A stretch of DNA of 64,000 bases. Source: Bdellovibrionota bacterium. Its GTDB lineage: Bacteria; Bdellovibrionota_C; UBA2361; CAKMMH01. The stretch is from contig JBMNLI010000017.1 of NCBI GenBank assembly GCA_050952645.1, forward strand, positions 196,970 through 260,969. The letters are read 5' to 3'. The first letter of the stretch is position 1. The number at the start of each line of letters is the position of its first letter. Both the position numbers and the translations under genes were made by a program. The notes below the pieces were generated by a model that was given only the letters and a program-made list of their open reading frames with translations, searched no databases and had not been told where the DNA came from. Below, piece after piece: positions 13,911-57,723 of this stretch.

Positions 13911-13982
13911 TAAAAGTTTGGGTTTTATCTTAGGAATATCAACAAAGCTCTGTAATAGAACTAAAATTTTTAGCTAAAAAGA

Positions 13983-29247: not shown

Positions 29248-29559
29248 ATACACTTAAAGATATATACATATATTATATAATATATAAACGTATAAGCATA
29301 TAACATATAATAATAGATAATATGTAATATATTACTAATATATAATAACTATTGCATAAAAATTCAAATAAAAATTTTTCTATATGCTTTTTTTATTAAA
29401 TAAATTTATTTAACAAAATACATTTTTTAAGATGACTTTTAAAACTAAGATGGTTGCTTTTTTTATTATTTTTATTATTTTAATAAAGTCTTTTAAAAAT
29501 AAGTGCTTACGCTTTTTTAAAACAAACATTTTAAGAATATTTAAATATACCTTAATATT

Positions 29560-37073: not shown

Positions 37074-37200
37074 CTAAAAATTAGCTCTTCACATTTTAAG
37101 TGGGTTAAAGTCTATCTTCTAATAAATTGACAAAACTATTTTGTTCTTCACTTTTAAAGGTGATTTAAGACCTTAAAATTAGTATCACTCACCCCACGAA

Positions 37201-39097
37201 ATAGGGTAGAGCGAGGGCTATACCCTCTCCCTCCCGTCGCACCGTACGTACGGGTCTCGTATACGGCGCTCCATTAATATAATATCAAGTAATACTCAGG
37301 TAATACGTCAAAGGGTCGATTAAACCAATTCGTTCCTTTGTTTTACGCCCCAATATTTTAGGGCTTAATGCATAATTCACTACGTACCACGAACTGCGTC
37401 TATACCAGCCGAGTCTGCTGTTAGCAACCTTATAGATTTCTTCATTTCTAAAATTGCAACCAAGCATTCGGTTCAATTTCTTAAGATTTAGATAGATTCG
37501 TCTCGGCAATTTCCACTGTTTAAGTATTATAACCCTCACTTTGTGTCTAAGCCATTGACCATATTTATCTATAAAAGTCTTAAGAGTTCCTATCTTATAA
37601 TAGTTTATCCAACCTTTAATTAACCAGCTTAGCTGTTGAAATGTCGAACCTAACGTTCGTGCCATTGCCTTCCGTCTACAAAGAATTTCTCTAGTTTTAT
37701 CATAGAGTTTTCGTTTGCGATCTTCAGCAGGTTTACATTTCCAAGTTTTATACCCACTCTTCCAGTAGGTAAAGCCTAAGAAAGTGCTTTCCGTCGGCCT
37801 AGAGATTTTACTCTTACTTGAATTAATTTTAAGTCGTAGCTTACGCTCCAACCAACTCGCAACGGACTTCATTACTCTATTAGCAGCCTTTTCACTTCTA
37901 ACAAATATATTACAGTCATCGGCATATCTAACAAACTTAAGTCCTCTTGCTTCCAGTTCCTTGTCGAGTCTTATCAAGGTATATGTTAGATAATACTGGG
38001 GATAATGGACCTCCTTGCGGAACTCCTTTCTCACTTACAGTAAACAATCCATCTTCCATTATACCAGCTCTTAAGAACTGTCTTATCAATCGTAGTGTCT
38101 TCGCATCTTTGATGCGTTCCCTGATTATCGAAATTAATTTGTCGTGATTAACAGTATCAAAATATTTCTCTATGTCTAGGTCTATAACCCAATCATAGCC
38201 TCTTTTCAAGTACTCAAGAGTTCTATATACTGCTAGATGGCAATTCCTTCTAGGTCTAAAGCCATAGCTACTATTACTAAAATACTTTTCGTATCCGCGT
38301 GCTAGTATTTGCGCTACCGCTTGTTGAATTACCCTATCTACTACTGTAGGTATTCCTAAAGGTCTCATCTTACCATTAGCTTTAGGTATATACACTCTCT
38401 TAACTGGACTCGGCTTATAATTCCCTTCACGTATCTGAGATTTTATCTCTTCTCTGTGAACGGCAAAATAGTCTTCAAGCTCATCTACTGGCATATCATC
38501 TACACCAGATGCACCTTTATTTCGCTTAAACAGCCTTTATAGCCTCATCTATATTTTTGTCTGATATAATTAGTTCAATCAATTCCACCTGTTGCTCCTC
38601 CCTCTGTTTGTAAAGCTACTAGAAAACACCCCCTCTATCTTCTGCCCCCACAGGTTACGTTCCTGTTTGTTAGGCATATCCTTCAATTTCGGACTCTTCT
38701 AGCCTTGCTTACAGTGATTCACAATATATTAACGTTCAACCCTTCCTTGAGTGGTGTCTCAAGTACTATGGTATCAACTGACTTCCAGATATAAGCTTTA
38801 TATCGCACGTGCATAGCACGCTATCTGGACCTCCCGGGGTAAGGCATAGTTCTTTCACCAGACAACCTCCAGATTTACTCGTTTGGTTTTACGTTTGTCT
38901 TTAGGGCTTCGGTTTGTAGCGCAACCTCACCCACCATTTAGCCTTGTATCTGGTTTCTGTTCGTAGGCTCCTTGGTTTTGATCCGCCACTTCCTTCACTC
39001 TAACATTACTGCTTCGAGCTTGTGGCATCACTACACTTGGTGACAACTACCCGTGACGGGACTTTCACCCGCTAGAACTATGTCGTGCCCGGCACAC
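37201..39097 (-). mobile_element. Bacterial group II intron (about 1.9 kb) with 5' GUGUG and 3' ...CUACCCUAU boundaries, no En domain; inserted into a MITE
   Basis: Boundaries defined by alignment with the uninterrupted MITE copies; RT/maturase ORF inside. Confidence 0.8.
37285..38494 (-). CDS. Group II intron-encoded reverse transcriptase/maturase, split into two ORFs by a +1 base in an AA run near 37985
   Basis: RT domains (RPLGIPTVVDRV, GVPQGGPLSPVLSNIYLD | RLDKELEARG, YADDCNIF) and maturase domain X. Removing one A restores ...NIYLDRLDKELEARG... Confidence 0.8.
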
Positions 39098-39270
39098 GCC
39101 CAAAAGAAAATTGACTTTAAAGGAATTTGCATAAAATAAATTAACTTTAAATATAGCTGTAATTTTTTTTTTGAAACTATAGTTAGTTTTATATAAAAGT
39201 CAATTTTCTTTTAAGCTAACCTAAAAAAACAATTTTCTAACCCACTTAAAACGTCAAAGAACCTAAAAAT

Positions 39271-39990
39271 TTAAATATTATATCTACAAGATATAAAATA
39301 TCTTAACTCTTTATTACTAATATTTTTTATGTTTTCTTTTTTATCATCATAAATAAGCACACCATCATTTAAAGCTAATAGATGACTAACAACTGGAAAA
39401 AGTCGCCTTAAATCGTGGCTTACTATAATCATCGTTAAGTTATATTCTTTTTGTAAATTAGATATTAACTCCATAATTACTGCGCTAGCTACTGGGTCTA
39501 GCCCACTAGTAGGGTCATCTAACAAAACTACGCTTGGGGTAGACACTAGCGCTCTTGCTAGAGATACTCTTTTTCGCATACCACCGCTAAGCTGTCCTGG
39601 CATTTTTAAATAACTATCTTTAAGCCCTACCTTATCTAGTATATCAAATATTTTGTAAGTATAATTTTTTCTTTTTTCATCACTTAAAAGCGATAAAGAG
39701 TTTCCTCTAGTAAGTGGAAAAAGAACATTATCAAAAACGTTCATCGAATCGAAAAGTGCTCCTTCTTGAAACATAAGTGAAACGTCGCTTTTATTTTTTA
39801 TACCAAGGTCGAAAGTGCCACTATCTTGCTCATATATTCCTGCAAGAACTTTTAGCAAAACGCTCTTTCCAGAAGCGGTAGGGCCTATTAACCCTGTAAT
39901 TGTGCTAGCTTTTAAACTAAATGAAACATCTTTTAGGGCTTCAACATTGCTAAATGATTTCGTTATATTATTAACTTCTATATTTTTCAT
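39271..39990 (-). CDS. ABC transporter ATP-binding protein (single NBD, MlaF/Ttg2A-like size)
   Basis: Walker A GPTASGKS, signature LSGGMRKR, Walker B LLDDPTSGLD; no permease gene adjacent. Confidence 0.8.
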   Translation of the reverse strand: MKNIEVNNITKSFSNVEALKDVSFSLKASTITGLIGPTASGKSVLLKVLAGIYEQDSGTFDLGIKNKSDVSLMFQEGALFDSMNVFDNVLFPLTRGNSLSLLSDEKRKNYTYKIFDILDKVGLKDSYLKMPGQLSGGMRKRVSLARALVSTPSVVLLDDPTSGLDPVASAVIMELISNLQKEYNLTMIIVSHDLRRLFPVVSHLLALNDGVLIYDDKKENIKNISNKELRYFISCRYNI

Positions 39991-40094
39991 ATATATATTT
40001 TTTTTTATAATTATTCTTGCTAACTATTCACGCTAATAATTCACGCTAATAATTTTTCGTAAAGAGAAAGTAATAACATTTTTAAAAAGTTTCT

Positions 40095-41327
40095 TTATAA
40101 AAATTCCTGTATTTTGCTATCTAGCTCTTCTATTGAAAATGGTTTTGCTAAAAATGCCTTTGCTCCATATTCTAACATTTTATTTACTGCATCTTGTGAA
40201 CTAAATCCACTTATTACTATAAACTTTACATCGGGTCTTATGGACATTAGGTCGATAAAGAGATCTTCCCCAGAACCATCAGGCATTAACATATCTGATA
40301 CTACAAGGTCGAACTGCCCTCTTTGTTTTTTAAATATATCGTATGCTTCTTTAACACCACTAGCTACATATACATCATACCCTAAAAACTTCAATCCATC
40401 AAAAAAAACCTCTCTAATTATCTCTTCATCATCAACAAAAAGTATTTTTCCGCTTTTTTGTTTTTTCTTTTCATTATTTTGTTTCTGATTATCTTGTTTT
40501 TCAAAATTTTCATCTTTTGCTAATGGGAGTGTTATTCTAAACGAACTTCCTTTACCCTCTTTCGATGCACATTCTAATTTTCCATTAAGACTTTTTACTA
40601 TTTCAAAAGTAGTGCATAAGCCTACGCCAGTTCCGTTATCTCCTTTAGTAGTAAAATAAGGCTTTAAAATATTTTCTTTTATCTTATTTGACATACCTAT
40701 ACCATTGTCGGTAACTGAAAATTTACAAAATTTATCATCTATCTTTTCTAGCACGATTTGTATTTTAAGATTTTCTTTATTTTGGCATTCTTTTAAAGCG
40801 TCTACTGCGTTAACTACTAAATTTATAAGAATTTGTGCCATGGATGCTTCAATAGCTTTTATATAAATATCATTTTCTAATTTAGTTTCAATTTCATAGA
40901 TAGGAGGCACCGAGGCTCTTAATAGAAAGATGGTATCTTTGAAAACATTCGTTAAATTTAAAACTTTTAGTTCATCATTTAATTTTAGCTTAGAAAAATT
41001 TAAAATTTGTTTTGTAAGCCCTGAAGCTTTTAAAATAGCATTTTCGATAGAAGAAATAGAATCTAATAGCTCACGGGCTTCGTCTAAGTTTTTCTTAGAG
41101 TTTTTTTCTTGGTTTTCTTCTTGGTTTTTTTCTCGGGTTTTTTCTCGGGTTTTTTCGGATTTTTTTTCTAGAGATCTTTTTATAAAAGATATATGCCCCA
41201 TCATTCCAGTTAAAATATTATTAAAATCATGAGCAACCCCACTAGCTAAAACGCCTAAACTTAAAAGCCTTTGATTGTGCAGTTTTTCATTCGTTTTAAG
41301 TTTATTATCATTATTTTTTTCATTCAT
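40095..41327 (-). CDS. Hybrid sensor histidine kinase (HisKA plus HATPase) with C-terminal receiver domain; contains a KTREK/NQE low-complexity insert
   Basis: VAHDFNNIL H-box, G1/G2 boxes, C-terminal KILFVDDE...DLVVSDMLMP receiver. Confidence 0.8.
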   Translation of the reverse strand: MNEKNNDNKLKTNEKLHNQRLLSLGVLASGVAHDFNNILTGMMGHISFIKRSLEKKSEKTREKTREKNQEENQEKNSKKNLDEARELLDSISSIENAILKASGLTKQILNFSKLKLNDELKVLNLTNVFKDTIFLLRASVPPIYEIETKLENDIYIKAIEASMAQILINLVVNAVDALKECQNKENLKIQIVLEKIDDKFCKFSVTDNGIGMSNKIKENILKPYFTTKGDNGTGVGLCTTFEIVKSLNGKLECASKEGKGSSFRITLPLAKDENFEKQDNQKQNNEKKKQKSGKILFVDDEEIIREVFFDGLKFLGYDVYVASGVKEAYDIFKKQRGQFDLVVSDMLMPDGSGEDLFIDLMSIRPDVKFIVISGFSSQDAVNKMLEYGAKAFLAKPFSIEELDSKIQEFL

Positions 41328-41729
41328 TATAAATATTACCTAAAAGATTGTTTAATGCCTCTTTGTAATCCGCTATAACTATTTGATATTATTAGACAAT
41401 TTATCTTTTTAAAAAAATTATCTTTTAAAATCAAGCATTTTCGGTATAAAATGCTATTTGAGTATTTTTGAAAGCATTTTTTAAGAGAATTAAAAAATTT
41501 AATTATTTACTCTAACTTATTTGATCTAATCATTAAAATAATTTTAATAATAATTTAATGATAATTCAAGGTAAGAACGATGCTTTTAAAATCACTAAAG
41601 TTTAGTATATTAAATTTTATCAAATCTTAAAATAGGAATTATAAGTCTTTAGGAGGTTTTTTGTTGACTTAAAGTTTTTTTAGGGGATGCCCTAAGGATT
41701 TCTATTTTAAATATTATGGAGTAAATTAA

Positions 41730-42032
41730 ATGGCTGATTTACAAAAGGGCATTGTAAAGTGGTTTAATGATGCTAAAGGATTTGGTTTTATACAAAGTGA
41801 GGCTGGAGAAGATGTTTTTGTTCATTATTCAGCAATAACGTCTGATGGGTTTAAAACGCTAAAAGACGGCGAAGAAGTTACTTACGAAATTGAAAAAGGC
41901 GAAAAAGGACTTCACGCTTTATGTGTAAACAGGACTAAAAAAATCGCTAAAGACAAGCTTAAAGCACCTAAAGAAAACGCTCCTAAAGAAGATGCCTTAG
42001 CCAAAACATCAAAAGAGGAGAATTTAAATTAA
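41730..42032 (+). CDS. Cold-shock protein (CspA family) with a lysine/alanine-rich C-terminal extension
   Basis: [18 protein letters not shown]1 motif; 100 aa. Confidence 0.9.
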
Positions 42033-42115
42033 AGTCGATTTTCTAGTTCTTCACGTTTAAAGGGGATTAGAAAAATTGTTTTTTTAAGGCTAGTTTAAAA
42101 TCTCTTAAAAAAAAT

Positions 42116-42381
42116 GGCTCTTCACGTTTTGAGTAGGTTAGAGTCTATCTTCTAATGTAAATTGACAAAATTATTTTATGAAACTGTTGTTGTTTTATTA
42201 AAATAATAGTTAATTTTATTGGGAAAAATAAACATTAGAGTTGTTAGAAAAAGTTATCCATAACTGATAGCAAGACCTAGTAATTAAAAGCTAAAGGTCA
42301 GGCTGTGGATAACTTTCACAAAGACCCCATTAAATAGAATGGCGTTTTGTCTCTCTTAACCCACCTAAAACATGAAGAACC
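42116..42381. repeat. MITE-like element, subfamily 1 (266 bp), 3' of the csp gene
   Basis: Collinear with 13636..13910; TIRs GGCTCTTCACGTTTTGAGTAGGTT / AACCCACCTAAAACATGAAGAACC. Confidence 0.8.
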
Positions 42382-42614
42382 TCTTTTTATATAATTTTTC
42401 TTATTAAAAAGCATCCTTAATTTCCTTATATAAGCCACTTAAAATAATTTAACACTTTCAACACGTTATCATAAAAATAGGCACTTTTCAAGTATTGTAT
42501 TAGGCAGTTTTCAGGCTTTTCGTTAGGCACTTTTCAGGCGATTTGCTATGCAATTTTCAAGGCTATGCAATTTTCAAAAGGGGGGGAAACTAAAACTCAT
42601 ACGTGCCTAGGCTT

Positions 42615-43646
42615 TTAGAAGCATTTGCCTGCTAACTGTCCGCAAGCGGCTGCTATATCTTTTCCTTTTGAATAGCGAATAGTAGTCGTTATTTTAGAAT
42701 TTAATAGATTATTTGCAAACTCGAAAACTACTTTTTCATTTGGGGTTTTAAAAATATTTTCATCACACTCATTATAAGGGACTAAATTTACTTTAGCTTT
42801 TAGGGACGACACTATCTTTCTTAATCTTCCTAAATCTTCTCTAGTATCGTTTACTCCTTTTAGCATCACGTATTCTATCGTAATTTTTCTTTTACCTTTA
42901 AGTTTAACTTCTTTTAGTGCTTCGATTAACATCTCTAATGGATATTTTTTATTTATTGGCATTAAAAAATCACGAAGCTCATTCGTTGTAGCATTTAGAG
43001 AAACTGCTAAGCTTGCTTTTATCTCCTGCTCAAAAAAATCTTTTATCCTTGGGACTATTCCACAAGTAGAAACTGTAATTTTTCTTGCACTAAAGGCATA
43101 TCCGTATTCATCGTTTAAAATATCTATTGCCTTTACTACATTATCATAATTTAAAAATGGCTCTCCCATTCCCATAAAAACGATATTAGTAAAATCTTGC
43201 AAATGAGCGTTTGCATCGTAAAGCAAGAACCTAACTTGTCCTATAATTTCCGATACTTCTAAATTTCTTTTAAATCCTAATTTAGCGGTTTGACAAAATG
43301 CGCAATTCATAGCACAACCTACTTGTGAAGAAATGCAAATAGTATTTCTTTTATCTTGTTTTATAAATACAGATTCTATATATGAGCCATCACTCAATTT
43401 GAAAGAATATTTTCTTGAGCCATCTTTAGAGTTTAATTTTTTTTCTAGTGTTAATTCTGGAAAAGAAAAAGTAACCTTAAAAATTTCTCTAGTATCTCTT
43501 TTAATATCGGTCATTAAAGAAAAGTCGGTTATCCCTCTAGCGTATACCCATTTAAAAAGCTGGTCTGCTCTAAACTTTGGAAGTTCAAATGTAGCACTTA
43601 AGTAAGAAGCTAAGTCTTGTCTAGTAAAATTAAAAAAATTTATCAT
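42615..43646 (-). CDS. rlmN: 23S rRNA (adenine2503-C2)/tRNA methyltransferase RlmN (radical SAM)
   Basis: CAMNCAFCQT radical-SAM cluster motif; 343 aa. Confidence 0.9.
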   Translation of the reverse strand: MINFFNFTRQDLASYLSATFELPKFRADQLFKWVYARGITDFSLMTDIKRDTREIFKVTFSFPELTLEKKLNSKDGSRKYSFKLSDGSYIESVFIKQDKRNTICISSQVGCAMNCAFCQTAKLGFKRNLEVSEIIGQVRFLLYDANAHLQDFTNIVFMGMGEPFLNYDNVVKAIDILNDEYGYAFSARKITVSTCGIVPRIKDFFEQEIKASLAVSLNATTNELRDFLMPINKKYPLEMLIEALKEVKLKGKRKITIEYVMLKGVNDTREDLGRLRKIVSSLKAKVNLVPYNECDENIFKTPNEKVVFEFANNLLNSKITTTIRYSKGKDIAAACGQLAGKCF

Positions 43647-43889
43647 ATAATTTATAAAGTTTTCTTAAAAGAATTTTTTAGGGGGTAGCTTTACGAGTAT
43701 CTAAATACGCACTTTGTATAAGTTAATTATCTTATTTTTTAAGCTCTTTTGCACGTTTATTAAGTTTTAAGCACTAAAAACTAGCCTTATTTCTCCTTTA
43801 AAGAGAAATCTTTTAAAAGAAAATAATTTTTAAGAGCCTCTTTAAAAACGTGCGAAAGAGTAAAAAAACGCAAAAAGATTAAATTAAAC

Positions 43890-44300
43890 TTATAATTCTG
43901 GAAAGAAAAACTCGACTTCCGTTTTAGCATTTTCTATACAATCAGAGCCGTGCACAGAGTTTCTATCGATACTTTCTGCGAAGTCTGCTCTAATAGTTCC
44001 TTTTTCCGCTTTTGCTGGGTCTGTTGCTCCCATAAGAGTTCTATTTTTAAGAACTGCGCCCTCTCCTTCGAGAACTGAAACTACCACTGGGCCACTTATC
44101 ATAAATTCTACTAACTCATTATAAAAAGGCCTATCTTTATGAACTTCATAAAATTTTTGTGCTTGTTCTTTAGTTAAAGTTAGCATTTTTATTGCTATTA
44201 TTTTTAAGCCGTTATTTTCAAAACGACTCAAAATATTACCTATAACACTTTTCTCCACTGCATCAGGTTTTATTATCGATAAAGTTCTTTCTATAGTCAT
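43890..44300 (-). CDS. ndk: Nucleoside diphosphate kinase
   Basis: NGSD/HGSD active-site region (NSVHGSD); 136 aa. Confidence 0.95.
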
Positions 44301-44487
44301 AAATATTATCTCCTTTTAATTAAATACAAATTTATATTTTTATTACACTCTTAATTTATACACTCTTAACTTAGCAATTAATTTATACGCATTTTTACTT
44401 ATACGCATTTTAATTTATTTTATATTTTTATTACCTTTTTTTGTTATATGCTTTTATTTTAAGAAAAGTTTTGCTTGTATACAGAAA

Positions 44488-44736
44488 TTATGCTTCAGCT
44501 TGTTCTACTGCCTTTGGCGCTTCTTTTAATCTTTTTATTATACGTCCTTTAGTTAAATCGTAAGGCGATATTTCGACTACTACTCTATCTCCTGGAAGTA
44601 CTCTAATATAGAAACGTCTCATTTTACCTGCAAGGTATGCAAGGAGTTCATGTCCGTTATCGCATTCAACTCTAAAAGTGGTATTAGGGAAACATTCCTT
44701 TACCACGCCATTTAATTCTATTGTATCTTTTGCCAT
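44488..44736 (-). CDS. infA: Translation initiation factor IF-1
   Basis: S1-like IF1 sequence ([16 protein letters not shown]...PYDLTKGRI); 82 aa. Confidence 0.95.
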
Positions 44737-45094
44737 ATATAAACTTTTTATTTTAAAATTGTTAATAAAGTTCTTTTTTAAAAGTAAACATTATTTAGGT
44801 TATTACATACTACTACACTTCTATGCTTTTTTAGTATACTTTTTATAGTATACATTTATAGCTATACTTTTATAGCTTAAAGGATGCTTTCATATTTTAT
44901 GAAAAGAACTTAAGTAAAATTTAGCCTGTTTAAAAAAGATAAAAATTTTTTCTCTTTTAAAAAATCTTTTGGCTTTCTTTAAATAAACTTTTTATATGAT
45001 AACATTTTTTAAGCAAAAACTGCAAAAGCTAGAATTAAAAAAGTAGCGAAAACTCCCTTACTTTCAATTTTTGATTTTACAAATTAGTTATTTA

Positions 45095-46520
45095 TCAATT
45101 AAGTTTACTAAAAACATCTTTGTGTTCTCTAAGAAAATTTATTGCCGCCGATTTAGCATCTAAGTCTTCATTTTGGTTTTTAGCTATTTGAAGCCATTTT
45201 AAAGCTTCTTTTTTATCTGTCGCTACGCCTTCTCCATTAAAATACATCATGCCGACATAAGCGGCACCTCTAGGATTCCCTTGATCTGCAGCTTTTTTAG
45301 CCCATTTAAATGCTTCTTTAAAATCTTTAGAAACTCCTTTCTCAATTATATACATATTAGTTAAAAAAAAGCTGGGCAAGTACGCTTCCACGCTCCGCAC
45401 CTTTTTTATACCATTTTACAGCTTCTTGATAATCTTGAGGAACTCCTTGACCAAGTTCATAGACAATGCCTAGGTTAGTCAATGCGTTAGCATTTTCTTT
45501 CTTAGCAGCTTTTCTATACCATTTTATCGCTTCTTTATAATCTTTTAGAACGCCTGCTCCTAACCTGTACATGCTTCCTAAATTATCTTGAGCTATAGCA
45601 TCTCCTTGCTCTGCGGCTTTTTTATACCACTTAAATGCCTCTTTATTATCTTTAGGAATGCCCTCACCATTTAAATACAAAGAACCTAAATCATTTTGAG
45701 CAATAGCAAGGCCTTGCTTGGCAGCTTTTTTATACCATTTAACAACCTCTGTATAATCCTTTGAAACACCTTGCCCATTTAAATACATCAACCCTAAATT
45801 ATACTGAGCTATGGCGATTCCTTTCTCTGCGGCTTTGATATGCCATTTTGCCGCCTCTTTATAATCTTGAGAAACTCCTTGTCCTAAAAAATACATATTA
45901 GCTAAATTAAATTGAACATTCACATCGCCTTTTTCAGCAAGAGTTATGCAAGAGTTTAATTCTTCGGAGTTAAGTTTTATATCATCTACGTTAAAGTCCT
46001 TTTTATTAAACTCGATTTTCTTTTCTGTTAAAGGGCAAGCTATTTTTTTTCCGCCGCAAGAGTAGAATAGTATTAGGAGTAATACGATTGTGATTGCAGA
46101 TATTTTTATAATTTTTTTATTTTTGCATTCGTTATTTTCTTTATTTATATTTTCTTTATTTATTTTTTCTTTATTTACATCGCTTTTATTTACATCTTTT
46201 TTATTATCGATAAATTTATTATCATTAAATTTATTATCGTTATTTTTATTACTTATTAAATTGCTAGTTTCTCTATCGTTTATTTCATTTTTAAAAACCT
46301 CACTAGCTTTTTTCCATAAAAAAGTTTCTAAGTTATCATCTTCTAAGCTGTTATCTAAAGTGCTACTAGCTAAAGTGCTATCATCTAAAGCACTACTATT
46401 TGAAATTAACGTATCTTTACTTATTCTACCTTTTTTAATTTTTTCTAAAATTTGAGATTTTGAAAAACCTCCTACTGGTTTTCCATCGATAAGCATATAG
46501 TAAATATTATTATTTTTCAT
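45095..46520 (-). CDS. Sel1/TPR-like repeat protein with N-terminal TM/signal and N/K-rich linker; split into two ORFs by +1 base in an A8 run at about 45362-45372
   Basis: Seven or more Sel1 units (GxGVxxDxxEAxKWYxKAAEQG). Removing one A gives ...AQLFLTNMYIIEKG..., in phase with the repeat. Confidence 0.75.
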
Positions 46521-46585
46521 AACCTTCTTTTCCTAAAAAAGAAACACTAAATTTAATATAAAGAACTACTAGAAGTAGTATAACG

Positions 46586-47971
46586 CTACTCTTTAAAATA
46601 CTTGTCTAAAAACATTCTTCCTAATTGCGATGCGGTTTTCATAAACTTTCCATTATGAACTATTACTATAGCTACCGCAATTTGTGGGTCATTTGATGGA
46701 GCACTCGCTATAAACCAATTCGTAAGCCCTTTAGGATTATCTCCATTTAACGTGCCAGTTTTTGCCGATACTGGTATTTCAAAATTTCTAAAATATTTTT
46801 TAGAAGTCCCCGAAGTAGTCGTCTTTGCCATCATTTTTAAAAGCTCATCGGCCGTGCCCTTATTCATAACTTCTTGCAGAACTTGCGGTTTGCTTTTATA
46901 GAGAATCTCCCCCGTTGGCGCTACGACTCTACTTATCATATAAGGCTTTGGAATCACCCCCTTGTTAGCGACACCTGCCATAATCATCGCAGCATGAAGC
47001 GGACTTATGCGAACATCTCCAAACCCTGCACCAGTTCGACTAAGCTCATAATCTCCCTCAGGAATATTAGCTTCACTACTAGGCTGTATCATATCAAACG
47101 GAAGCTCCTCATTAAAACCAAACCTATTTGCATAATTCATCAAAGTCGCTTGATTTAAATATTTTAACGCCACTCTACCAAAAACAGGATTACAAGATTT
47201 TCCTAAAGCATCTGAAAGAGACATATGCCTTTTATCTAACTTACCACTAGGGGCATAATTATACTTATTTAATATATAATCGCTTCCCCTATACGCTATG
47301 CGAGAATCTGCACGCAGAACTCCAGCCTCTAAAGCTGCCGTAGCAGTAACTATCTTAAATAACGAAGCCGCAGGAAGCCCAGCATACAATTCAAAATTAG
47401 GAATATCTGAAAGCCCATCCATTGCTACAACTCTTCCCGTCTTAGGTTCTAAAGCTACTAGTGCTACGTGTGGCACCTCTGCTTGTTCTAAAATACTCGT
47501 AGTGTAACTTTGAAGTTCTGGGTCTAACGAAAAAAACACTATATTTCCAGCACGTGAAACCGCCTTTAAAGATTTCTCCGTCTTATACAATTCTTCATCA
47601 AACGACGGAATCTTAGTTAACAAAAATGAATTGTCTTTTAAATTTACTAAAAGCTTAACTGGAGGAAATTTCTCTAAGCTACCTAACGCCTTAATATTCA
47701 TTCTAGGTTTAGGAGCTTCTTTTTTAATATTAGTTTGAACTATTAGTTTTTTTACACTATTAGATGGATTGTGAAATCCAAAATAGTAAATGGCTATAAA
47801 AGCAGGTACGAAAAAACAAGATATAAAAGCTAAATACGAAAAAATTTTTTGCTTCTTTAATTTATACCTCTTGCGTTTCTTAACAACCTGCCCCTGAAGA
47901 CAACTTGGTTTATCACTTTTAAAAAAATTCATCATAATTACAATAAAAAGGTAAATAAAAAAATTCTTCAC
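46586..47971 (-). CDS. Class B penicillin-binding protein transpeptidase (PBP2/FtsI-like)
   Basis: SxxK (ASLFK), KTGT motifs; N-terminal TM; 461 aa (start uncertain). Confidence 0.7.
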   Translation of the reverse strand: MKNFFIYLFIVIMMNFFKSDKPSCLQGQVVKKRKRYKLKKQKIFSYLAFISCFFVPAFIAIYYFGFHNPSNSVKKLIVQTNIKKEAPKPRMNIKALGSLEKFPPVKLLVNLKDNSFLLTKIPSFDEELYKTEKSLKAVSRAGNIVFFSLDPELQSYTTSILEQAEVPHVALVALEPKTGRVVAMDGLSDIPNFELYAGLPAASLFKIVTATAALEAGVLRADSRIAYRGSDYILNKYNYAPSGKLDKRHMSLSDALGKSCNPVFGRVALKYLNQATLMNYANRFGFNEELPFDMIQPSSEANIPEGDYELSRTGAGFGDVRISPLHAAMIMAGVANKGVIPKPYMISRVVAPTGEILYKSKPQVLQEVMNKGTADELLKMMAKTTTSGTSKKYFRNFEIPVSAKTGTLNGDNPKGLTNWFIASAPSNDPQIAVAIVIVHNGKFMKTASQLGRMFLDKYFKE

Positions 47972-48077
47972 GTTTTAAGGTGTTTTTAAAACCTCAAAAT
48001 TAGCATCACCCTTAAAGCTCTTAAAGCACTGGCTTTAACTCTTAAAATTATCATCAATTATTTATCATCAATATTTA

Positions 48078-48302
48078 GGCTCTTCACGTTTTATGTGGGT
48101 TAAAAACCTTTAAAATTAGTATCACTCACCTCGACGAAGCCCAAAAGAAAATTGACTTTAAAGAAATTTGCATAAAATAAATTACTTTAAATATAGTTGT
48201 AATTTTTCTTTAAACTATAGATAGTTTTCTATAAAAGCCAATTTTCTTTTAAGCTAACCCCCAATAACAATTTTTTCTAACCCACCTAAAACGTGAAGAA
48301 CC
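48078..48302. repeat. MITE-like element, subfamily 2 (225 bp) between kdsA and the PBP gene; partial solo end at about 47965..48010
   Basis: TIRs GGCTCTTCACGTTTTATGTGGGTT / AACCCACCTAAAACGTGAAGAACC; intact CGAAGCCCAAAAG site. Confidence 0.8.
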
Positions 48303-48333
48303 ATTATTTATCATCAATCGCTTATCATCTATT

Positions 48334-49193
48334 TTACGCTATTTCTCTAATTCTTAAAAGCCTATCTATTAAGCTTGGAAATTCCTTAAGTGGCACCATA
48401 TTAGGCCCATCACTTTTAGCTTTTTCTGGCTCTGGGTGAGTCTCAAAAAACAGCCCATCGCAACCTATCGCCATTGCACATCTTGCTAGAGGCTCTACTA
48501 AGCTTCTATCCCCACCTGAAGCATTTCCTAGGGCGCTCGGTTCTTGCACGCTATGCGTCGCATCGAAAATTACTGGTGCTCCAAAAGATTGCATCTTAAC
48601 TACTCCCTTAAAATCGTTTACTAAGCGTCCATAACCAAAAAAAGTTCCTCTCTCACAAATCATCACATTTTTATTCCCCGTACTATTAACCTTTTTTATA
48701 ACATTTATCATATCCGTAGGTTGCATAAATTGCCCTTTCTTAATGTTTAAAGGCTTATTAGTTTTTCCTGCAGCTAAAAGCAGATCCGTTTGTCTAGCTA
48801 AAATGCTGGAATCTGAAGCACATCACAAACATTGGCCACAATTTGAGCTTGATAGCTTTCATGAATATCTGTAATTACGGGAAGCCCCGTTTCTTTTTTA
48901 ACCTTTAATAGAGCGTTTAACCCCTCTTCGATACCTATACCACGAAAAGAATCTATGCTAGTTCTATTAGCCTTATCGAACGAGGCTTTAAATATAACAT
49001 TTATATTACGAGTTTCTTTTAAATTACTTAAAACATCGGCAATTTTTAGCAAGATTTCTTCGCTCTCTATAACGCAAGGACCCGCAATCAATAATAAAGG
49101 CATGCCCTTTCCAACTTTAAAATTTGCTATATTAACTATATTATTAGTATTTAATTCCATTTTTTCACATCCTTTTAAAAATATTATCATCAA
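48334..49193 (-). CDS. kdsA: 3-deoxy-8-phosphooctulonate (KDO8P) synthase, split by a 1-base deficit in a T run at about 48797-48801
   Basis: N-terminal ORF ends ...QIPAF*; adding one T gives [33 protein letters not shown]..., continuous with the C-terminal ORF. Confidence 0.85.
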
Positions 49194-49259
49194 TATAATA
49201 TATAAAGGGTAAAATAAATAGTGAAAGTTATTTATAATTTTTTTTAAAGGAGACTTAAA

Positions 49260-49823
49260 GTGGCATTTTGGAAAAAAGGAGATTCATCAAAAAATAATCT
49301 ATCAAAAAATAATCTATCAAAAAACAATCTATCAAAAAATGATTTAAAAAATAATTTAGAAGATAACGAGCAAGACGCATCTTCTAGCGACAATTATTCT
49401 AATAATAAATCAAACGATACTTTTGCGATTAAAATAACTAGTAGTAAAGAAGATTCAAAAGATAATTCAAAAGATAATAAATCACAAGAAATTACTACTA
49501 ATGTAGTTCGTTCTGCATTAGGTGCAGGCACAGTTATTCAAGGCAAGCTTTCTTTTGATACGCCAGTTAGCATCGATGGAAAATTAAGTGGGGAGTTATT
49601 TTCTTCCGAAACCGTTATTATAGGAAAATCAGGCGTAGTAGATGCGACTATCGACGTTCGCTCACTCGTAGTTTATGGAAAAATCAAAGGTGATATTAAA
49701 GTATCAGAAAAAGCTACCTTTTTAAATGGCGCTATAATCGATGGCTCTATTTCTACACCATCTTTAATAGTAGAAGAAGGAGCAACGATAAATTGCAAAT
49801 TCGAGATGAAAAAAAAGAATTAA
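49260..49823 (+). CDS. Bactofilin (DUF583) cytoskeletal protein with an N-terminal KNNLS repeat extension
   Basis: Beta-helical bactofilin core ([15 protein letters not shown]...[11 protein letters not shown]...); (SKNNL)x4 repeat. Confidence 0.7.
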
Positions 49824-50018
49824 AATATAAAGAACGAAATTTTTTTCTGTAATAGCTTTAAAGAAATTCTCTAAATACTCGCTTTTATTTGCCACTATTT
49901 AAATAAAAAAAACGATCTATTTTTTTACATAAATTTTTACAGAAATCTTTACATAAATCTTGGTGTTCTTTTAAGTTGCTATCAAGCTTTAAAGATTTTA
50001 GTTTTACTTATTTTTATT

Positions 50019-50091
50019 AGTTCTTTACGTTTTGTTTTAAAATTCTCAAAATAGCACTATCCTACCTACACGCCTAAAACGTGAGAAAACC
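50019..50091. repeat. Miniature (73-bp) derivative of the MITE family: two TIR-like ends with a short spacer, 3' of rplS
   Basis: AGTTCTTTACGTTTTG ... CGCCTAAAACGTGAGAAAACC. Confidence 0.5.
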
Positions 50092-50138
50092 TTTTTATTT
50101 CTACTATTTTGATTATCTATTTTGATTATTTGTTTTGA

Positions 50139-50473
50139 TTATCTTTTCTTAATCTTAGCAGCTTTACCACGAAGGTCTCTTAGATAATAAAGTTTTGCTC
50201 TTCTTACACGTCCTTTTGAAACGACCTCTATCTTATCTACTCTTGGGCTATGGACAAAAAAAGTTCTTTCAACTCCTATGCCACCAGCGCTAATTTACGA
50301 ACTGTAAAAGTGCCACCAGCTTGAGTGCCACCATTTCTTTTTATTACAACGCCTTCAAAAATTTGGATACGCTCTTTATTACCCTCTACGATTTTTGCAT
50401 GAACTTTTACAGTATCACCAGCTCTAAAATCAGGGATATCAGTTTTTGTATAATCTAAAGCATTTGCGTTCAT
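50139..50473 (-). CDS. rplS: 50S ribosomal protein L19, frameshifted by a 1-base deficit in an A run (CGTAAATTAGC, expected CGTAAAATTAGC)
   Basis: N-terminal 65 aa in the track ORF; C-terminal ...[51 protein letters not shown] is in the +1 frame. Confidence 0.85.
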
Positions 50474-50653
50474 CTTTTTTACCTTCTTTCCTTTTTTCTT
50501 TTGAAATTCAAACTACTACTTATAACTACTCACACTTTTTAAAATGCATATCAAAATAATATAACATAACTAAAAATATAGTAAATAGGTTTACCAAATG
50601 ATTTTTTATGTTAAAATGTAAAATTGTAATTTTAAAATAACTATAAAATTTTT

Positions 50654-50995
50654 ATGAATACAAAACTTAAGTATAACATAATAAAAAGAAAAAAGAAAAC
50701 TTTAAGGCCTAAAGAGGATCCTAAAAAAGAAGAAATAATAAAAAAAATTTCAGATATTTTCGATGAAAATGGCTACAAAGTGCGTAGGGAAAAATTGCAT
50801 CAAGGTTTCGGCTGGAAAGCGATAAGTGGTTCTTGCAGAGTTAACGATGAAAATTTAATTTTTTTAGATAGGAAGCTTGGGCAAGACGATCAAATGATTT
50901 TTCTTATGCTACAAATAAAAGAAAAAGACCTTGGCATGCCTAAAGATTTGCTTTTAGAAATACCAGATAAATTAAAAAAGATAGCTAAAATCTAG
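50654..50995 (+). CDS. Hypothetical basic protein (113 aa)
   Basis: ORF only. Confidence 0.35.
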   Translation: MNTKLKYNIIKRKKKTLRPKEDPKKEEIIKKISDIFDENGYKVRREKLHQGFGWKAISGSCRVNDENLIFLDRKLGQDDQMIFLMLQIKEKDLGMPKDLLLEIPDKLKKIAKI

Positions 50996-51848
50996 AGTTA
51001 AATCTCAACAAGTGTTCTTTTGCTCCATTTAGTGTATCTCTAGTTTTATTATTTTTAGTTATCACTACCCTATATCTAATAGAGTAAATCCCTTTATCCA
51101 TATTTTTATGTCTATATTTAACATTAGTATGATAAGTTAAAATCTTTTTTCCAAGTTTAAAAAATTTATCTTTTACACCATTTCTTTTTAATTTTCTTAT
51201 ATGTATTAAATATTTAAATCTCGCATTATTTCTTTTTTTATTCTTTCTAATGGTAGCTTTTAAAACTTTAGGAAGTTTTATAAGTAGAGCATTTCTATTT
51301 TTTAATTTTTTAATTTCTGGCCTTGGCACTTCCATTCTTGGATATGCAAGCTTTATTGCATTAGAGTTTCTAGGCGTTTTAGTTGGTGCAGCGGTAGGCG
51401 TAAAACTAGGAGTAAAAGTAGGCGTAAAAGTAGGAGTAAAAGTCTGCGTGTTTGTAGGGGTAAAAATTATCGTGCTAATAGGCTCTATGGTAGGAGTATT
51501 AGTTTTAGTAGGAGTAGATGTATAAGTAAAGCTTGGTGTGCTAGTATTTTCTGGCGTTATAATATTAGTAGGAGTGAAAGCATACGTATTAGTATTATTT
51601 AAAGTAGGAGTTGGTGTAAAAGTAGCGGTAGCTGTAAGAGTAGGAGTAAGGTTAGGAGTTTTAGTAGGCGTTAGTGTGGGAGTTAGAGTAGGAGTTGGAG
51701 TTAGAGTCCATGAGTATCCTTTAGGAGTTTCATCGCAACCGTTTTCTAATGCATTAAATCTTTTAATGTTAAAATCTGCAAAAGGATCGTCTTCTGGTTC
51801 ATCATCTACGCAATCATCTAAGCAGTTTATTATTCCATCGCCGTCCAT
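50985..51848 (-). CDS. C-terminal fragment of the IS-disrupted RCC1/Ca-binding/TP-repeat surface protein (DxDxDG motif, TPT repeats, basic tail)
   Basis: The frame stays open upstream of the ATG through the IS boundary and is in phase with the 53725..56345 gene once the IS and one TSD copy are removed. Confidence 0.7.
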   Translation of the reverse strand: MDGDGIINCLDDCVDDEPEDDPFADFNIKRFNALENGCDETPKGYSWTLTPTPTLTPTLTPTKTPNLTPTLTATATFTPTPTLNNTNTYAFTPTNIITPENTSTPSFTYTSTPTKTNTPTIEPISTIIFTPTNTQTFTPTFTPTFTPSFTPTAAPTKTPRNSNAIKLAYPRMEVPRPEIKKLKNRNALLIKLPKVLKATIRKNKKRNNARFKYLIHIRKLKRNGVKDKFFKLGKKILTYHTNVKYRHKNMDKGIYSIRYRVVITKNNKTRDTLNGAKEHLLRFNSRF

Positions 51849-51931
51849 ATCATCAGTGTTTTTATAAGTTCTACCGTAATACTGGGCTTGCTTACCGTAA
51901 TAAGTAACCTTAACTTTGCAAAAAAGTTCAC

Positions 51932-53167
51932 CTAAAATTTTTTTTGTAATTTTTTATTTATTTGAGCAGCTTTTAATCTTACCTTATCAGCATCTATATC
52001 AAACGCATTTAATATAGTTTTTTGTCTTTTGCTTACTGCATAGCTCAGCTGATATAAATCCTTACTCCCTCTTACCATTTCAATTTTTTCAAGTTCTTTT
52101 AATGCGGCAGGAACATTCATATAGTTTGGCTTTTTTGTTAGCTTAGAAAGTTCTTCATTAAGTAGAATATAAATGCGATTGCGAATTATAAGTGCTATAA
52201 ACTCTATAAAAATTTTAGCAGATACTGCCTGAGATGAATGAACTCTCATACTTTTTGAGCCTAAAAAAGTCTTATCAATAGCAAAAAGTTTCTCAGTTGC
52301 GTCTCTACCCTTGTAAAGTATTATAGCTTCTTTAGCACTCATTTCTTCCGAACTAACAAGACAAAAATACCCACATAAATTAAGAGCCTTTTGAATTTCA
52401 TCTGCTCTCTCTTCTACTTTTCTTAACTTTCCTTGATTGTCATAACTTAAATCAAAAAATTGCTTATACGTTTGTCCAAACTTTGTATCTTTGCCAATAT
52501 GGTTTTTTAAAAATTGTTCAAACTCCTCTAATTTAATTTCTAGTTGCTCCCTCTCAAATGCTTGCTTTTCCGCACTAAAATAAACATGAAAATAACGCTC
52601 CTTACTATCATCATCATATAATTTTGATTTCACTGTAGTGCCATATACCTTGTATAAGCGAATACTACAGTCTCTTTTAGACTCAAATGTATTCCTGTTT
52701 TCTTCTACTAATTTAGAAACTAAAGCCTTACACCCTTTTACCATCAATAAAAAAGAAAAACCACTATTATCCATATATTGAATATTATATTTACTAAAAT
52801 AACCACGGTCTAAAATAAATCCTATCTTTTTATATCCATACTCTATAACCTTATCTGCCATATGAGTAAATTGAGAAACGTCTGTAATAGAACCAGGATA
52901 CTCTTCGTAAAATAACGGAACTCTATTCGTTTGATCAAAGGCAATGGATAAATTAAATACTGGGAATCCTTTTTCGTCTTTCGCTTTACCAAACTCTACT
53001 AATTCAACATCACCTGCTTGACAGTTCTTATTAGTCGAATCATATGAAACGTAAACCATTTGATTGCGATCTTTTCCCTTGTTCCAATCGTCAAGAAAGT
53101 TAATTATCTGCTCTTTGCTAACAGAAGAAAGAAAACGACTTATGGTAGAATCACTATAGATGCGCAT
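51932..53167 (-). CDS. IS1634/IS4-like DDE transposase (C-terminal 411 aa; frame open upstream to about 53290 without an ATG)
   Basis: Transposase-like sequence; upstream extension ...SQYYPDYAFSHPLF is paralogous to the end of the 53332..53622 ORF. Confidence 0.7.
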   Translation of the reverse strand: MRIYSDSTISRFLSSVSKEQIINFLDDWNKGKDRNQMVYVSYDSTNKNCQAGDVELVEFGKAKDEKGFPVFNLSIAFDQTNRVPLFYEEYPGSITDVSQFTHMADKVIEYGYKKIGFILDRGYFSKYNIQYMDNSGFSFLLMVKGCKALVSKLVEENRNTFESKRDCSIRLYKVYGTTVKSKLYDDDSKERYFHVYFSAEKQAFEREQLEIKLEEFEQFLKNHIGKDTKFGQTYKQFFDLSYDNQGKLRKVEERADEIQKALNLCGYFCLVSSEEMSAKEAIILYKGRDATEKLFAIDKTFLGSKSMRVHSSQAVSAKIFIEFIALIIRNRIYILLNEELSKLTKKPNYMNVPAALKELEKIEMVRGSKDLYQLSYAVSKRQKTILNAFDIDADKVRLKAAQINKKLQKKF

Positions 53168-53331
53168 ACCTTTTGTAAAGAGTGGATGAGAAAAGGCGTA
53201 GTCTGGATAATACTGACTGACATTCTCTTCATTTACAATAAAATAACTCGCTAAATCAAGTATAAGTTCACTACGTTCACCAAAATGTTTTTTTTAGTAA
53301 AAAAGGCAAATTAAATTCATTTGCTACTTTT

Positions 53332-53622
53332 TCAATCACCAAGTGGGGGACCTATACGAAGACAACAACTGCGTGAAGCGTCTGAAAATTTCTCGGGCAT
53401 AGGGGCATCTGGAAAATAATTACTATAATTGTCATTAGGGTACATAATATCATCTCTACCATCAACTAATTTTCCAATAACGCTACGCTTTGGATTAGTA
53501 TACTGTTTCTCTTTATTATAAGTGCGATCGTATTCAAAAAGCACATATTTTGCTTCCCCTTTTTCTCTTATAATTATTTTATTTCTTTGCTCTGGTAATG
53601 GAACTGTTCGATTGTAATTCAT
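53332..53622 (-). CDS. N-terminal transposase fragment (96 aa) of the same IS or a diverged second copy
   Basis: IS1634-type N-terminus; ends ...NYSNYFPDAPMPEKF, homologous but not identical to the upstream extension of the main transposase ORF. Confidence 0.5.
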   Translation of the reverse strand: MNYNRTVPLPEQRNKIIIREKGEAKYVLFEYDRTYNKEKQYTNPKRSVIGKLVDGRDDIMYPNDNYSNYFPDAPMPEKFSDASRSCCLRIGPPLGD

Positions 53623-53724
53623 AAAACCTCCTTTAGGTTAACGGTTGCACTAAAAGTATAGCATAGTAAATACACAGATGCAAGTAAAAAAAATGCATAA
53701 TTTAACGATTATTTCTTATTTATT

Positions 53725-56345
53725 TTAATTGATTATTTGTTTAGGTGAACTTTTTTGAAAAGTTAAGGAAGTAAAAGTAGCATTATCATCTAGATTAGGA
53801 CATTGGTCGTAAGGGTCTAAAACTTCATCTCCATCGTGATCGTTTATATCGCAATAATTTTCAGTAAGAGTTTTACATCTATAAACTCCCTTTCCTATAA
53901 CATCATAAGTAATGCCACCGATTACTATTTCGCCAGTTTTTTCCGAACACTCTTCCCCTATAAAAAAATCTTCATCGATACGACCATCGTAATCATTATC
54001 TAAACCATCACAAAGTTCAGGCTGTGGCTCAGGCGTATACGTTGCCGTGTTAGTAGGTGTATTAGTCGGCGTGTTAGTAGGTGTATTTGTTGGCACCGTC
54101 GGCGTATTTGTAGGAGTATTTGTAAAAGTATGCGTGAATGTAGGAGTAAAGGTAGGCGTAAAGGTAGGCGTTGATGCGGCGCTAGATGAACTACTATGAA
54201 AAGAAGTAGTGCTACTACTGCTACTACTAGGAGTACCATTTGGTGAAGAACTACTATGAAAAGAAGTAGTGCTACTACTGCTACTACTAGGAGTACCATT
54301 TGGTGAAGAACTACTATGAAAAGAAGTAGTGCTACTACTGCTACTACTAGGAGTACCATTTGGTGAAGAACTACTATGAAAAGAAGTAGTGCTACTACTG
54401 CTACTACTAGGAGTACCATTTGGTGAAGAACTACTAGATTGCACATTACCTTGCGAGCTAGCACTACTACCACCTCCAAAAATAATTATACCGTCTCCAT
54501 CCATATCTCCAAACCCTAAACCTTTCATCATGCGTTTACCGTCTGAAGAAAAATCTTCATCTATTTTTCCATCACAATCATTATCTAAGCCATCATAAAT
54601 TTCTAAGGTTTTCGCATCCATATTCGCTTGTGCATCACACAAAACAGGACTATCAGATATTAAACCAGCACAATAATATTTTCCATTTTCAAGGCATACT
54701 CCAAGTCCAGCAGAGCAACTTAAATTTATAGAAGAATACAAACTATCTTTACAACAAGCAGGCGTATTTGCACTACAAACTATCAGAGGCTCTTCTGTGT
54801 CTCCATTGTAGCAAGTTAGCACTCCCTCTCCTAAACATTGATTAGCTAAACCATTATCGCACTCTTTACCTAAGTTTGCATAATTCCAATGCGTAGAACA
54901 ATTAGTAGGAAACATTAGAGCTTCCCCTCCTAAGAATATCTGAGTAGGCGTTTGTCTAGAAACTTTAGTGCCATCTCCAATTTGTGCTAAAGTATTATTT
55001 CCAGTGCTGTAAAGTTTTCCAACCACATTTATTATATATAAATTATTGCTAACATTTATAATACGTTTTACATCACTAAAAATAAATTCAGGTGTTTTTT
55101 GATTAATAGTAGTATTATTCCCAATTTGTCCAAAATCATTTTTTCCAAAACAGTAAAGATTATTATCACTCGCAACTACGCAAGTAGAATTGCTAGCAAG
55201 CGACATACTATAAACACCGTCTAGGACTTTATAAAACGGACTAGAAACGCTATCCCCTTTTCCTATTTGTCCGTAATTATTAGCGCCACTACAATAAAGC
55301 TTATTCTCGTTAGTTATAGCGCAAATATGGTACTCTCCTATTGAAACTTGTTTTATATCATCTAAAACTTTTAATGGTGCTGAAACTTTGCTATCTTCTT
55401 TTGCGTCGATCGGCTTATAAGTAGCATTATTATTTCCCCAACAATAAAGCGTTCCGTCTACTTTTATAGCACAAGTATTAAGGCTAGTTATACTAACATT
55501 GCGGACATTTTCAAGCACTTTCTTAGGAGTATTCACGGAAGCGCTTAAAGTTCCGCTACCTACCTGACCAAAGCTATTTCCTCCCCAACAAAAAAGATCT
55601 CCATTAGTTTTAATAGCACAAGCGTGCGCAACTGAAGAATTTTGCAAAGACACATAACTTACATCATCTAAAATTTTAATTGGAGATACCACTCGAGAAC
55701 TAAAAGTGCCATTTCCTACATTTCCAACTTCATTATAGCCCCAGCAATATAGCGCTCCTAAAGTAGTTATAGCACATGTAGTCCACCCTCCTACTGCCAC
55801 TTGGCTTATATTAAGCTTAGGAAGTATCAACTTAGGTGTAGTCTCGTAGGTAGTATCCCCCGAGCCTAATTGACCATAATCATTTTTTCCAAAACAATAA
55901 AGCTTGCTATCTGAAATAGCACAAGTATGATCATAGCCTACACTAACGGCACTTACATTTGTAAGCCCCACAATTTTTTTAGGAGTCGATACGTGATAAT
56001 CTTTAGATGTTATTTGACCATGTTCATTTAACCCCAGCAGTAAAGTTCTCCACTTACAGAAATAGCGCAAGTAGTGCTCCCATTACTTGCTACCTGCTTT
56101 ACGCTATCTAATATAACGCTATCTAATATAGGGGCTGATGCAAAACAAGGACTATTAGAAAATATTATGATAAATAAAAAGATAAATAAAAATAAGAAAA
56201 AATTAGAAAGAAAACTAGAGAATCTTTTTATAGTTTCTAATGGTTTTCTACTATATATTTCCTTACTATATATCTCGTTATATACCTTATCATATATAGA
56301 GGGAAAAAAATTCAATAAGTTATGTTCTTTTATGATAAAATTCAT
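53725..56345 (-). CDS. Secreted RCC1-repeat protein with thrombospondin-type-3-like DxDxDG Ca-binding motifs and S/T/P-rich mucin-like linker; frameshift at about 56045 (TT for TTT); last 15 codons derive from the IS inverted repeat
   Basis: Signal peptide; RCC1 signatures (LYCFGKNDYGQLG, LYCWG.N..GQ); four perfect 60-bp tandem repeats; CDGLDNDCDGKIDED motifs. Confidence 0.8.
54181..54440. repeat. Four-plus perfect 60-bp tandem repeats inside the RCC1 protein gene (encode SSSSPNGTPSSSSSSTTSFH units)
   Basis: Four identical 60-nt lines in the sequence. Confidence 0.9.
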
Positions 56346-57113: not shown

Positions 57114-57464
57114 TCACACCATTTCAAACACATTATCTAACATAAGTAGCTTAAAAATCTCATCGACAAAACCACTAGCATCTTTTATAACTAATTTTCC
57201 GTTTTCTTCTTTTAATTTTTCATTACACGATAGAATCTTTCCTATACCATAACTATTTATCACTTCGACTTGAGACATATCTAATACGATATTTTTCTTG
57301 CCTTTCTCAAGAAGATTACTAAAAGCTTTCGTTAAGGCCTCACCGCTTTGCTCCGAATCTAAATCCTCGGTTATCTTAATAACCGCTTCACCTCTAGGCG
57401 ATATTTCCGTTAGAAACTCTAGATCTATATACTTATTATTCATAAGTTTTATATCGGATATCAA
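57114..57464 (-). CDS. STAS-domain protein (anti-sigma-factor antagonist, SpoIIAA-like)
   Basis: STAS fold signature with conserved Ser region (VEVINSYGIGKIL); 116 aa. Confidence 0.65.
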   Translation of the reverse strand: MISDIKLMNNKYIDLEFLTEISPRGEAVIKITEDLDSEQSGEALTKAFSNLLEKGKKNIVLDMSQVEVINSYGIGKILSCNEKLKEENGKLVIKDASGFVDEIFKLLMLDNVFEMV

Positions 57465-57723
57465 CGCTTTAAACTTAATATTTTTTAATATCTTTCCTTA
57501 CCATTTATTTATAATTTATTTATAATTTATTTACCGCTTATTATTTACGGTTTATTTGCTACTTATTATTACAAAATTAAAGCTAACTATATCTTTAAAC
57601 TTAAGATTTTTCTTTATTTTCCCGAATATTTACACAAGACTTCAAGGATAAAAAACAAGGATAAAAACAAAAAAATAATGATAAATAAAAAATAAACTAA
57701 AGAATTTTCAAGGATTTTTTATT

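Follow-up and report, generated by a model that had tools for sequence, protein, structure and literature searches.

Single-base frameshifts clustered in a Bdellovibrionota contig, including those in rplS and kdsA, are very probably consensus errors of the assembly

The stretch of DNA analyzed here (the window; 64,000 nucleotides, GC content about 31%) belongs to contig JBMNLI010000017.1 of a metagenome-assembled genome (MAG) from a Bdellovibrionota bacterium. Frameshifts break eight of its approximately 60 genes, including kdsA and rplS, the latter encoding ribosomal protein L19 and being normally indispensable. Comparison of the window with independent sequences led us to conclude that these frameshifts are very probably one-base, and in one case two-base, consensus errors in the deposited assembly and do not reflect biology.

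Frameshifted genes in the window

The breaks were located by combining a map of open reading frames (ORFs) over the whole window, a three-frame reading of suspicious junctions and comparison with other sequences. The genes and sites concerned, with the 11 insertion or deletion (indel) events numbered in order, are as follows.

33976..35397, minus strand: HelY-like helicase C-part (Helicase_C and DSHCT), an intact separate gene
35557..36575, minus strand: HelY-like helicase N-part (helN, DEAD domain), which forms a gene of its own and is broken by A6 for A7 at 36159-36164 (event 1)
37201-37271 and 38844-39015: group II intron RNA, Rfam RF02001 and RF00029 (element 37190-39230, minus strand)
37288..38588, minus strand: group II intron reverse transcriptase (RT)/maturase with two one-base insertions, one outside any run at ~37970 (about 37969-37972; event 2) and one giving T3 for T2 at ~38529 (about 38528-38530; event 3)
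45015..45019, minus strand: intergenic site, T5 in the window vs T4 in the HiFi-derived contig L085 (event 4)
45095..46520, minus strand: Sel1-repeat protein, broken by T8 for T7 (A8 on the plus strand) at 45363-45370 (event 5)
48334..49160, minus strand: kdsA, broken by TTTT for TTTTT (T4 for T5) at 48800-48803, with TAG directly after (event 6)
50142..50473, minus strand: rplS (L19), broken by AAA for AAAA (A3 for A4) at 50294-50296 (event 7)
50985..51848, minus strand: Thr/Pro-rich ORF, its C-terminus altered by an extra TC at 51037-51038, (TC)2 in the window vs (TC)1 in contig L086 (event 8)
51932..53622, minus strand: IS1634-family transposase with two one-base insertions, A8 for A7 at 53288-53295 (event 9) and C5 for C4 at 53345-53349 (event 10)
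53725..56345, minus strand: RCC1-repeat protein, broken by TT for TTT (T2 for T3) at 56030-56031 (event 11)

These events, seven insertions and four deletions with ten of them in coding sequence, all fall between 36159 and 56031 (36.16-56.03 kb), and the census found the stretches 2.2-33.6 kb and 56.4-64 kb free of breaks. They are confined to 31% of the window (range test, P = 0.0016 for the eight loci and 6.6e-5 for the 11 events). Over the whole window, in-frame stops interrupt none of the recognised genes. Adjacent-ORF junctions at 13450-14000, 20950-21330, 29380-29700, 31200-31800, 41250-41560 and 57450-57800 were also taken up as frameshift candidates and turned out to be ordinary gene boundaries.

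After one-base edits, the proteins are full length and a single continuous Pfam match runs across each junction. The rplS site reads CGT AAA TTA GCG in the window, and one added A restores the frame, giving an L19 that matches Ribosomal_L19 over positions 10-110 of 111. At the kdsA site, GCA TTT TAG becomes QIPAFLARQTDL upon addition of one T, and the repaired KdsA matches DAHP_synth_1 over 9-254 of 270. Removing one T from the Sel1 gene yields a protein with seven Sel1 repeats; adding one T to the RCC1 site, which reads TGG GGT TAA, makes the RCC1-like domain continuous. The repaired RT matches RVT_1 over 1-204 of 205, followed by GIIM. All five of these sites had been named in the initial annotation, and reading each on the minus strand confirmed them as real breaks, those in RT and RCC1 lying about 15 nt from where they had been placed. 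Its list lacked, however, the second RT frameshift, the two transposase sites and the missing A of the helicase N-part; the transposase, which it had called broken in general terms, carries two inserted bases. Its statement that every frameshift is a length change in an A/T run fits most events, but not the RT insertion at ~37970, the C5-for-C4 insertion in the transposase or the TC dinucleotide at 51037-51038.

A/T runs of at least two bases hold 41% of the coding bases in the window, and those of at least three hold 25%. The association of the breaks with such runs is by itself weak evidence. Genuine slippage during replication and miscalls during sequencing are biased in the same way. The breaks are present in the deposited NCBI record (ACOX3T; fragments MGI6681367/68, 80/81 and 83), whose annotation splits HelN into 200 + 146 amino acids and the transposase into 443 + 96 amino acids, and gives a 95-residue N-fragment for the RCC1 protein (ACOX3T_07900).

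Intact counterparts in independent sequences

Run ERR10905742 is a PacBio HiFi data set from anaerobic-digester sludge (PMC10541625, Table 1). Together, three Logan contigs derived from it span 5,543 bp of the window.

L085, window positions 45639-42305: 0 mismatches, two one-base gaps (Sel1 T7; intergenic T4)
L086, window positions 49934-51213: 0 mismatches, two gaps (rplS AAAA; TC unit)
L087, window positions 57532-56602: 1 mismatch (single-nucleotide polymorphism (SNP) at 56644), no gap

Together they differ from the window by one substitution and four indel events, two of which are the rplS and Sel1 sites. Contig L086 has AAAA at the rplS site and encodes an intact 111-residue L19 identical to the predicted repair. 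Likewise, L085 has T7 at the Sel1 site, where its ORF is open straight through, and the intergenic T5/T4 site is the sole other difference within 3,333 bp of this contig. Essentially this strain is present in two public runs that are unrelated, ERR10905742 (HiFi, UK anaerobic digester) and SRR31061295, and this AT-rich uncultured Bdellovibrionota lineage looks like a recurrent digester inhabitant.

Repaired HelN (339 amino acids) matches exactly a Logan gene product (P0372) encoded on a different contig from the one that reproduces the break (L084, see below). For the two mobile elements, intact counterparts come from sister copies. With both bases removed, all 402 aligned RT residues match a JGI protein (P0241), as do the initial 20 residues when read in a third frame. 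Apart from the start residue, this protein equals P0367, which represents four copies in the same MAG. The motif at the first RT site was located in 117 homologues, and all but one of these have a lysine there (YLDKLDKEL), as do the 100%-identical intact copies. The reading AA for A proposed earlier for this site would instead give arginine and is thereby ruled out. The repaired transposase (562 amino acids) is identical to P0376, which comprises four accessions in the same MAG as well as JGI and Logan entries. This MAG contains each element in four or more intact copies with identical protein sequence, together with another broken RT copy (P0368/P0369, near ACOX3T_02820). Given these identical intact copies, the mobile elements have been recently active, with errors scattered over the copies.

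HelN, RT and transposase were aligned over 1,303 codons (1,323 with the 20 third-frame RT residues) without a single amino-acid change. Overall, the checkable differences comprise nine indels and one substitution. In real divergence of bacterial strains, substitutions far outnumber indels; even at one indel per ten differences, the chance that at least nine of ten differences are indels would be about 1e-8. For rplS, Sel1, helN, RT and the transposase, intact genes in the organism are shown at the level of sequence. The earlier proposal of assembly length errors rather than pseudogenes accordingly stands, with intact versions identical to the repairs recorded in independent read sets (rplS, Sel1, HelN) or in sister copies (RT, transposase).

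Alternatively, all frameshifts might be real recent mutations, for example in a mismatch-repair-deficient or decaying host-associated lineage that has a second copy of rplS or kdsA, or in a non-viable subpopulation. The AT-rich genome (31% GC) would suit this explanation; its long spacers, its Sel1 and RCC1 proteins, the many copies of insertion sequence (IS) elements and introns and 2.2 kb devoid of ORFs are compatible with some erosion, and slippage mutations prefer homopolymers as well. However, the near-identical strain has intact genes at a distance of one SNP in 5.5 kb, and the 9:1 excess of indels is the reverse of normal divergence, whereas a mutator would raise substitutions too. Furthermore, the sister IS and intron copies are protein-identical, and the normally indispensable rplS would find no slippage or recoding route in AAA. 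We thus regard such a wholesale origin by mutation as very improbable. Reductive-evolution pseudogenes resemble the present case in being frameshifted genes in AT-rich genomes with mobile elements. Unlike them, the genes here carry one or two lesions each, have no nonsense codons or amino-acid substitutions, are evenly conserved on either side of the break and have intact alleles on record for five of the seven repaired proteins (the TPT-rich ORF stands outside that count). Given these alleles, real pseudogenisation of rplS, Sel1, HelN, RT and the transposase was rejected.

Exact look-ups placed none of the following on record: the RT and Sel1 fragments, the C-fragment of the transposase, the truncated L19, the N- and C-fragments of KdsA, the bactofilin and the PBP with three different starts. 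With a junction-centred chimeric query, none of the junctions in kdsA, RCC1, HelN and the transposase was spanned by a 100% hit; the query did lead to the intact RT.

Conservation of rplS and kdsA

Bdellovibrionota MAGs and Logan contigs provide relatives (L001, L081 and L082/L083) in which the synteny L19-bactofilin-KdsA-PBP is kept and the genes are intact. Among three relatives, identity is 78-81% for KdsA and 87-90% for L19. Their DNA reads AGA AAA ATT AGC at the rplS site (A4-5) and GCA TTT TTA GCA at the kdsA site (T5); since these runs are longer, the window has one A fewer in rplS and one T fewer in kdsA than the ancestral runs. Identity to the relatives is similar on the two sides of each break, being 0.73-0.80 upstream and 0.77-0.82 downstream in kdsA, and 0.85-0.90 upstream and 0.88-0.90 downstream in rplS. 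Judged from these alignments, the repaired L19 and KdsA bear no sign of relaxed constraint. A decaying segmental duplicate was considered for the rplS-kdsA block and ruled out, given the conserved synteny and the intact state of the other genes in the block. One relative's contig (L081) also carries a 691-residue ankyrin protein.

True pseudogenisation of kdsA appears unlikely, as it is an essential-type gene with no decay and an ancestral T5. The repaired KdsA (275 and 286 amino acids) had no record in the protein collection upon exact look-up, a DNA-pattern scan of JGI metagenome contigs gave no match to its junction with either run length, and a genome-contig scan returned only relatives at <=78% identity, without the same strain. 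The same exact look-up of the repaired RCC1 protein (873 amino acids) and the same pattern scan for its junction, again with either run length, were equally without a match.

Could the indels be genuine, with the reading frame restored at expression through slippage of transcription or frameshifting on the ribosome, as happens in Buchnera and Blochmannia? The initial annotation had kept this alternative. These endosymbionts share with the present case an AT-rich genome and single A/T-run indels in otherwise intact genes, including information-processing genes (PMC3017870, PMC5009743). Rescue by slippage is documented for tracts of at least 9 nt (PMC3017870, PMC5009743), and insertion slippage in transcription climbs exponentially with run length (PMC5574713). 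In Buchnera and Blochmannia the tracts span 9-12 nt, whereas here they span 2-8 nt (A3, T4, T2, T8, A6, A8 and C5, besides a dinucleotide and a non-run site), with AAA and TTTT in the essential genes. The shifts of the endosymbionts are conserved across populations and species, while those of the window are absent from the relatives L001, L081 and L082 and from the same-strain HiFi data. The T8 of Sel1 and the A8 of the transposase could allow low-level RNA-polymerase slippage, and the stop codon of kdsA lies right at the shift site, but neither the rplS nor the kdsA site has an X XXY YYZ slippery heptamer. With runs this short, and with orthologues and the HiFi strain in frame, rescue of genuine indels is hardly credible and was set aside. 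Programmed frameshifting (prfB +1, dnaX -1, IS3/IS1) is similar in that two overlapping frames encode one protein, and in the transposase case an A-run is involved. It differs in its slippery motif or stimulator, which the rplS and kdsA sites do not have: by codon-anticodon rules, CGT AAA TTA (rplS) and GCA TTT TAG (kdsA) would re-pair poorly in the -1 frame, and the orthologues are single-frame. The transposase would need two shifts, both in the sense of an inserted base and not of -1 re-reading, and one-frame copies exist in the same genome.

Two separate helicase genes

For the region 33976..36575, genuine decay of a helicase gene had been proposed earlier, on the grounds of multiple breaks and a gap lacking ORFs. 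Instead, it holds two conserved genes, of which the C-part is intact and the N-part lacks a single A. The C-part is identical (100%) to P0121, that is, ACOX3T_07795 on a 403,525-bp contig of the Bdellovibrionota bacterium MAG. When a concatenated helicase query was used, all 120 of the 120 best hits were stand-alone C-part proteins of 468-484 amino acids; N-parts elsewhere are separate proteins as well (288-306 amino acids; P0242, P0255, P0279). The gap at 35398-35556 ends in AAAGGTGA (ribosome-binding site), a short spacer and then ATG, and by its sequence is an ordinary intergenic spacer. The split into an N-part gene and a C-part gene of ~470 amino acids recurs in the relatives found.

Evidence on possible real alleles and the clustering of breaks

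Two Logan contigs from run SRR31061295, L084 (29204-36793; 7,590 bp) and L088 (54407-56816; 2,410 bp), are both 100% identical to the window. They speak for a mixed explanation, in which most breaks are consensus errors but helN (A6) and/or RCC1 (TT) are real variants in the SRR31061295 population; accessory genes would then have been inactivated by recent mutation or be switched on and off. Both genes are accessory, both breaks are reproduced exactly in these contigs, and for helN the intact allele in another Logan contig means that both lengths are recorded. However, SRR31061295 is probably the read set of the MAG itself, in which case its agreement is not independent, and systematic miscalls return in any assembly from the same reads. 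Moreover, the runs are short (A6/A7, T2/T3) and no substitutions accompany the breaks. On balance, we consider this mixed origin unlikely. There is a slimmer chance that some length variants (RCC1 TT/TTT, helN A6/A7, conceivably kdsA) are real alleles circulating in digester populations; if so, they would point to switching at short homopolymers or to an early stage of erosion in accessory genes of host-interaction type, beside group II introns and IS1634 copies that are numerous and active. Phase-variable contingency genes, which switch by slipped-strand mispairing, offer a parallel, as both A6 and A7 of helN occur in public contigs and Sel1 and RCC1 proteins are of surface or host-interaction type. 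Unlike such genes, the loci here have short tracts, essential genes are equally affected, and no single accurate data set shows the two alleles side by side.

Several observations weigh against consensus errors as the explanation. The SRR31061295 reads agree with the MAG at helN and RCC1, and if that run consists of accurate short-read data, the two broken alleles are real in that sample. No independent same-strain sequence of kdsA and no independent read set covering the RCC1 break was found, and we infer the intact state of both genes. At the intergenic T5/T4 site and the TC dinucleotide, the comparison is ambiguous, and the error may lie on the side of the HiFi contig. About 20 A8/T8 runs within intact genes of the window are in frame, several breaks lie in runs of only 2-4 nt, and insertions (7) outnumber deletions (4), a pattern unlike classic homopolymer undercalling. 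Finally, the clustering of 11 events in 20 kb, against none in the other ~40 kb, has no explanation in the data at hand.

Indel consensus errors that truncate genes are known from long-read or low-coverage (meta)genome assemblies (PMC9262707, PMC12007338). The breaks of the window resemble them in being one-base changes, mostly in homopolymers, that occur in genes of any function, come without substitutions and are gone in accurate independent data; they depart from the typical pattern in the many 2-4 nt runs, the ~20 correct A8/T8 runs and the confinement to ~20 kb. Undercalling of homopolymers of the Oxford Nanopore Technologies (ONT) type was dropped as the specific cause, given these correct runs and the excess of insertions over deletions. 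Consensus errors nevertheless remain our preferred explanation. For five genes, independent sequences representing the strain or the element lack the indel; against accurate data, indels dominate over substitutions; and the breaks are blind to function, affecting the essential rplS and kdsA alongside mobile elements with no other decay. In the putative model, the consensus between ~36 and 56 kb would miscount single bases, and once two bases, mostly in short homopolymers. Each length change breaks a gene that is otherwise perfectly conserved, essential or not. The clustering would then probably arise from a stretch with thin or noisy long-read support that was left unpolished. Look-ups returned no SRR31061295 contigs for the genes at 36.8-54.4 kb, which suggests a local trough of depth or quality (thin support) in the source data; such a trough would explain the clustering.

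Other features of the window

At its C-terminal end, the RCC1 protein has a fourfold SSSSPNGTPSSSSSSTTSFH tandem repeat plus TPT/FTPT runs. Similar TPT-rich runs are found in the ORF just past the IS element, and a 'MDGDGII' motif is common to both. In relatives, the RCC1-IS-TPT block is absent between rplS and the STAS-domain gene (57114-57464) with its 111-residue neighbor; from this arrangement the block looks like an insertion.

Positions 1-2240 of the window (~2.2 kb) have no ORF longer than ~85 amino acids in any frame, and neither an Rfam scan of this segment, down to matches at E <= 0.1, nor a repeat scan gave anything of note. Such a segment is uncommon in bacteria; it may reflect a high density of sequence errors, erosion of the DNA or a long spacer. 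The ORF at 12873-13427 (184 amino acids) is locally GC-rich and of low complexity, being rich in Ala, Pro, Gln and Thr, and overlaps four further ORFs of 81-109 amino acids, of which one shares its strand and three are antisense; the feature is probably a composition artefact driven by repeats.

Significance

In summary, no new biology follows from these frameshifts. Public Logan contigs from unrelated runs, together with sister copies of mobile elements, can tell an error from a real frameshift without the reads. The deposited record needs polishing, and these loci, along with probably many others in this MAG, ought to be left out of pseudogene counts and are equally unfit for inferring genome erosion, loss of lipopolysaccharide synthesis or recoding in this Bdellovibrionota lineage.

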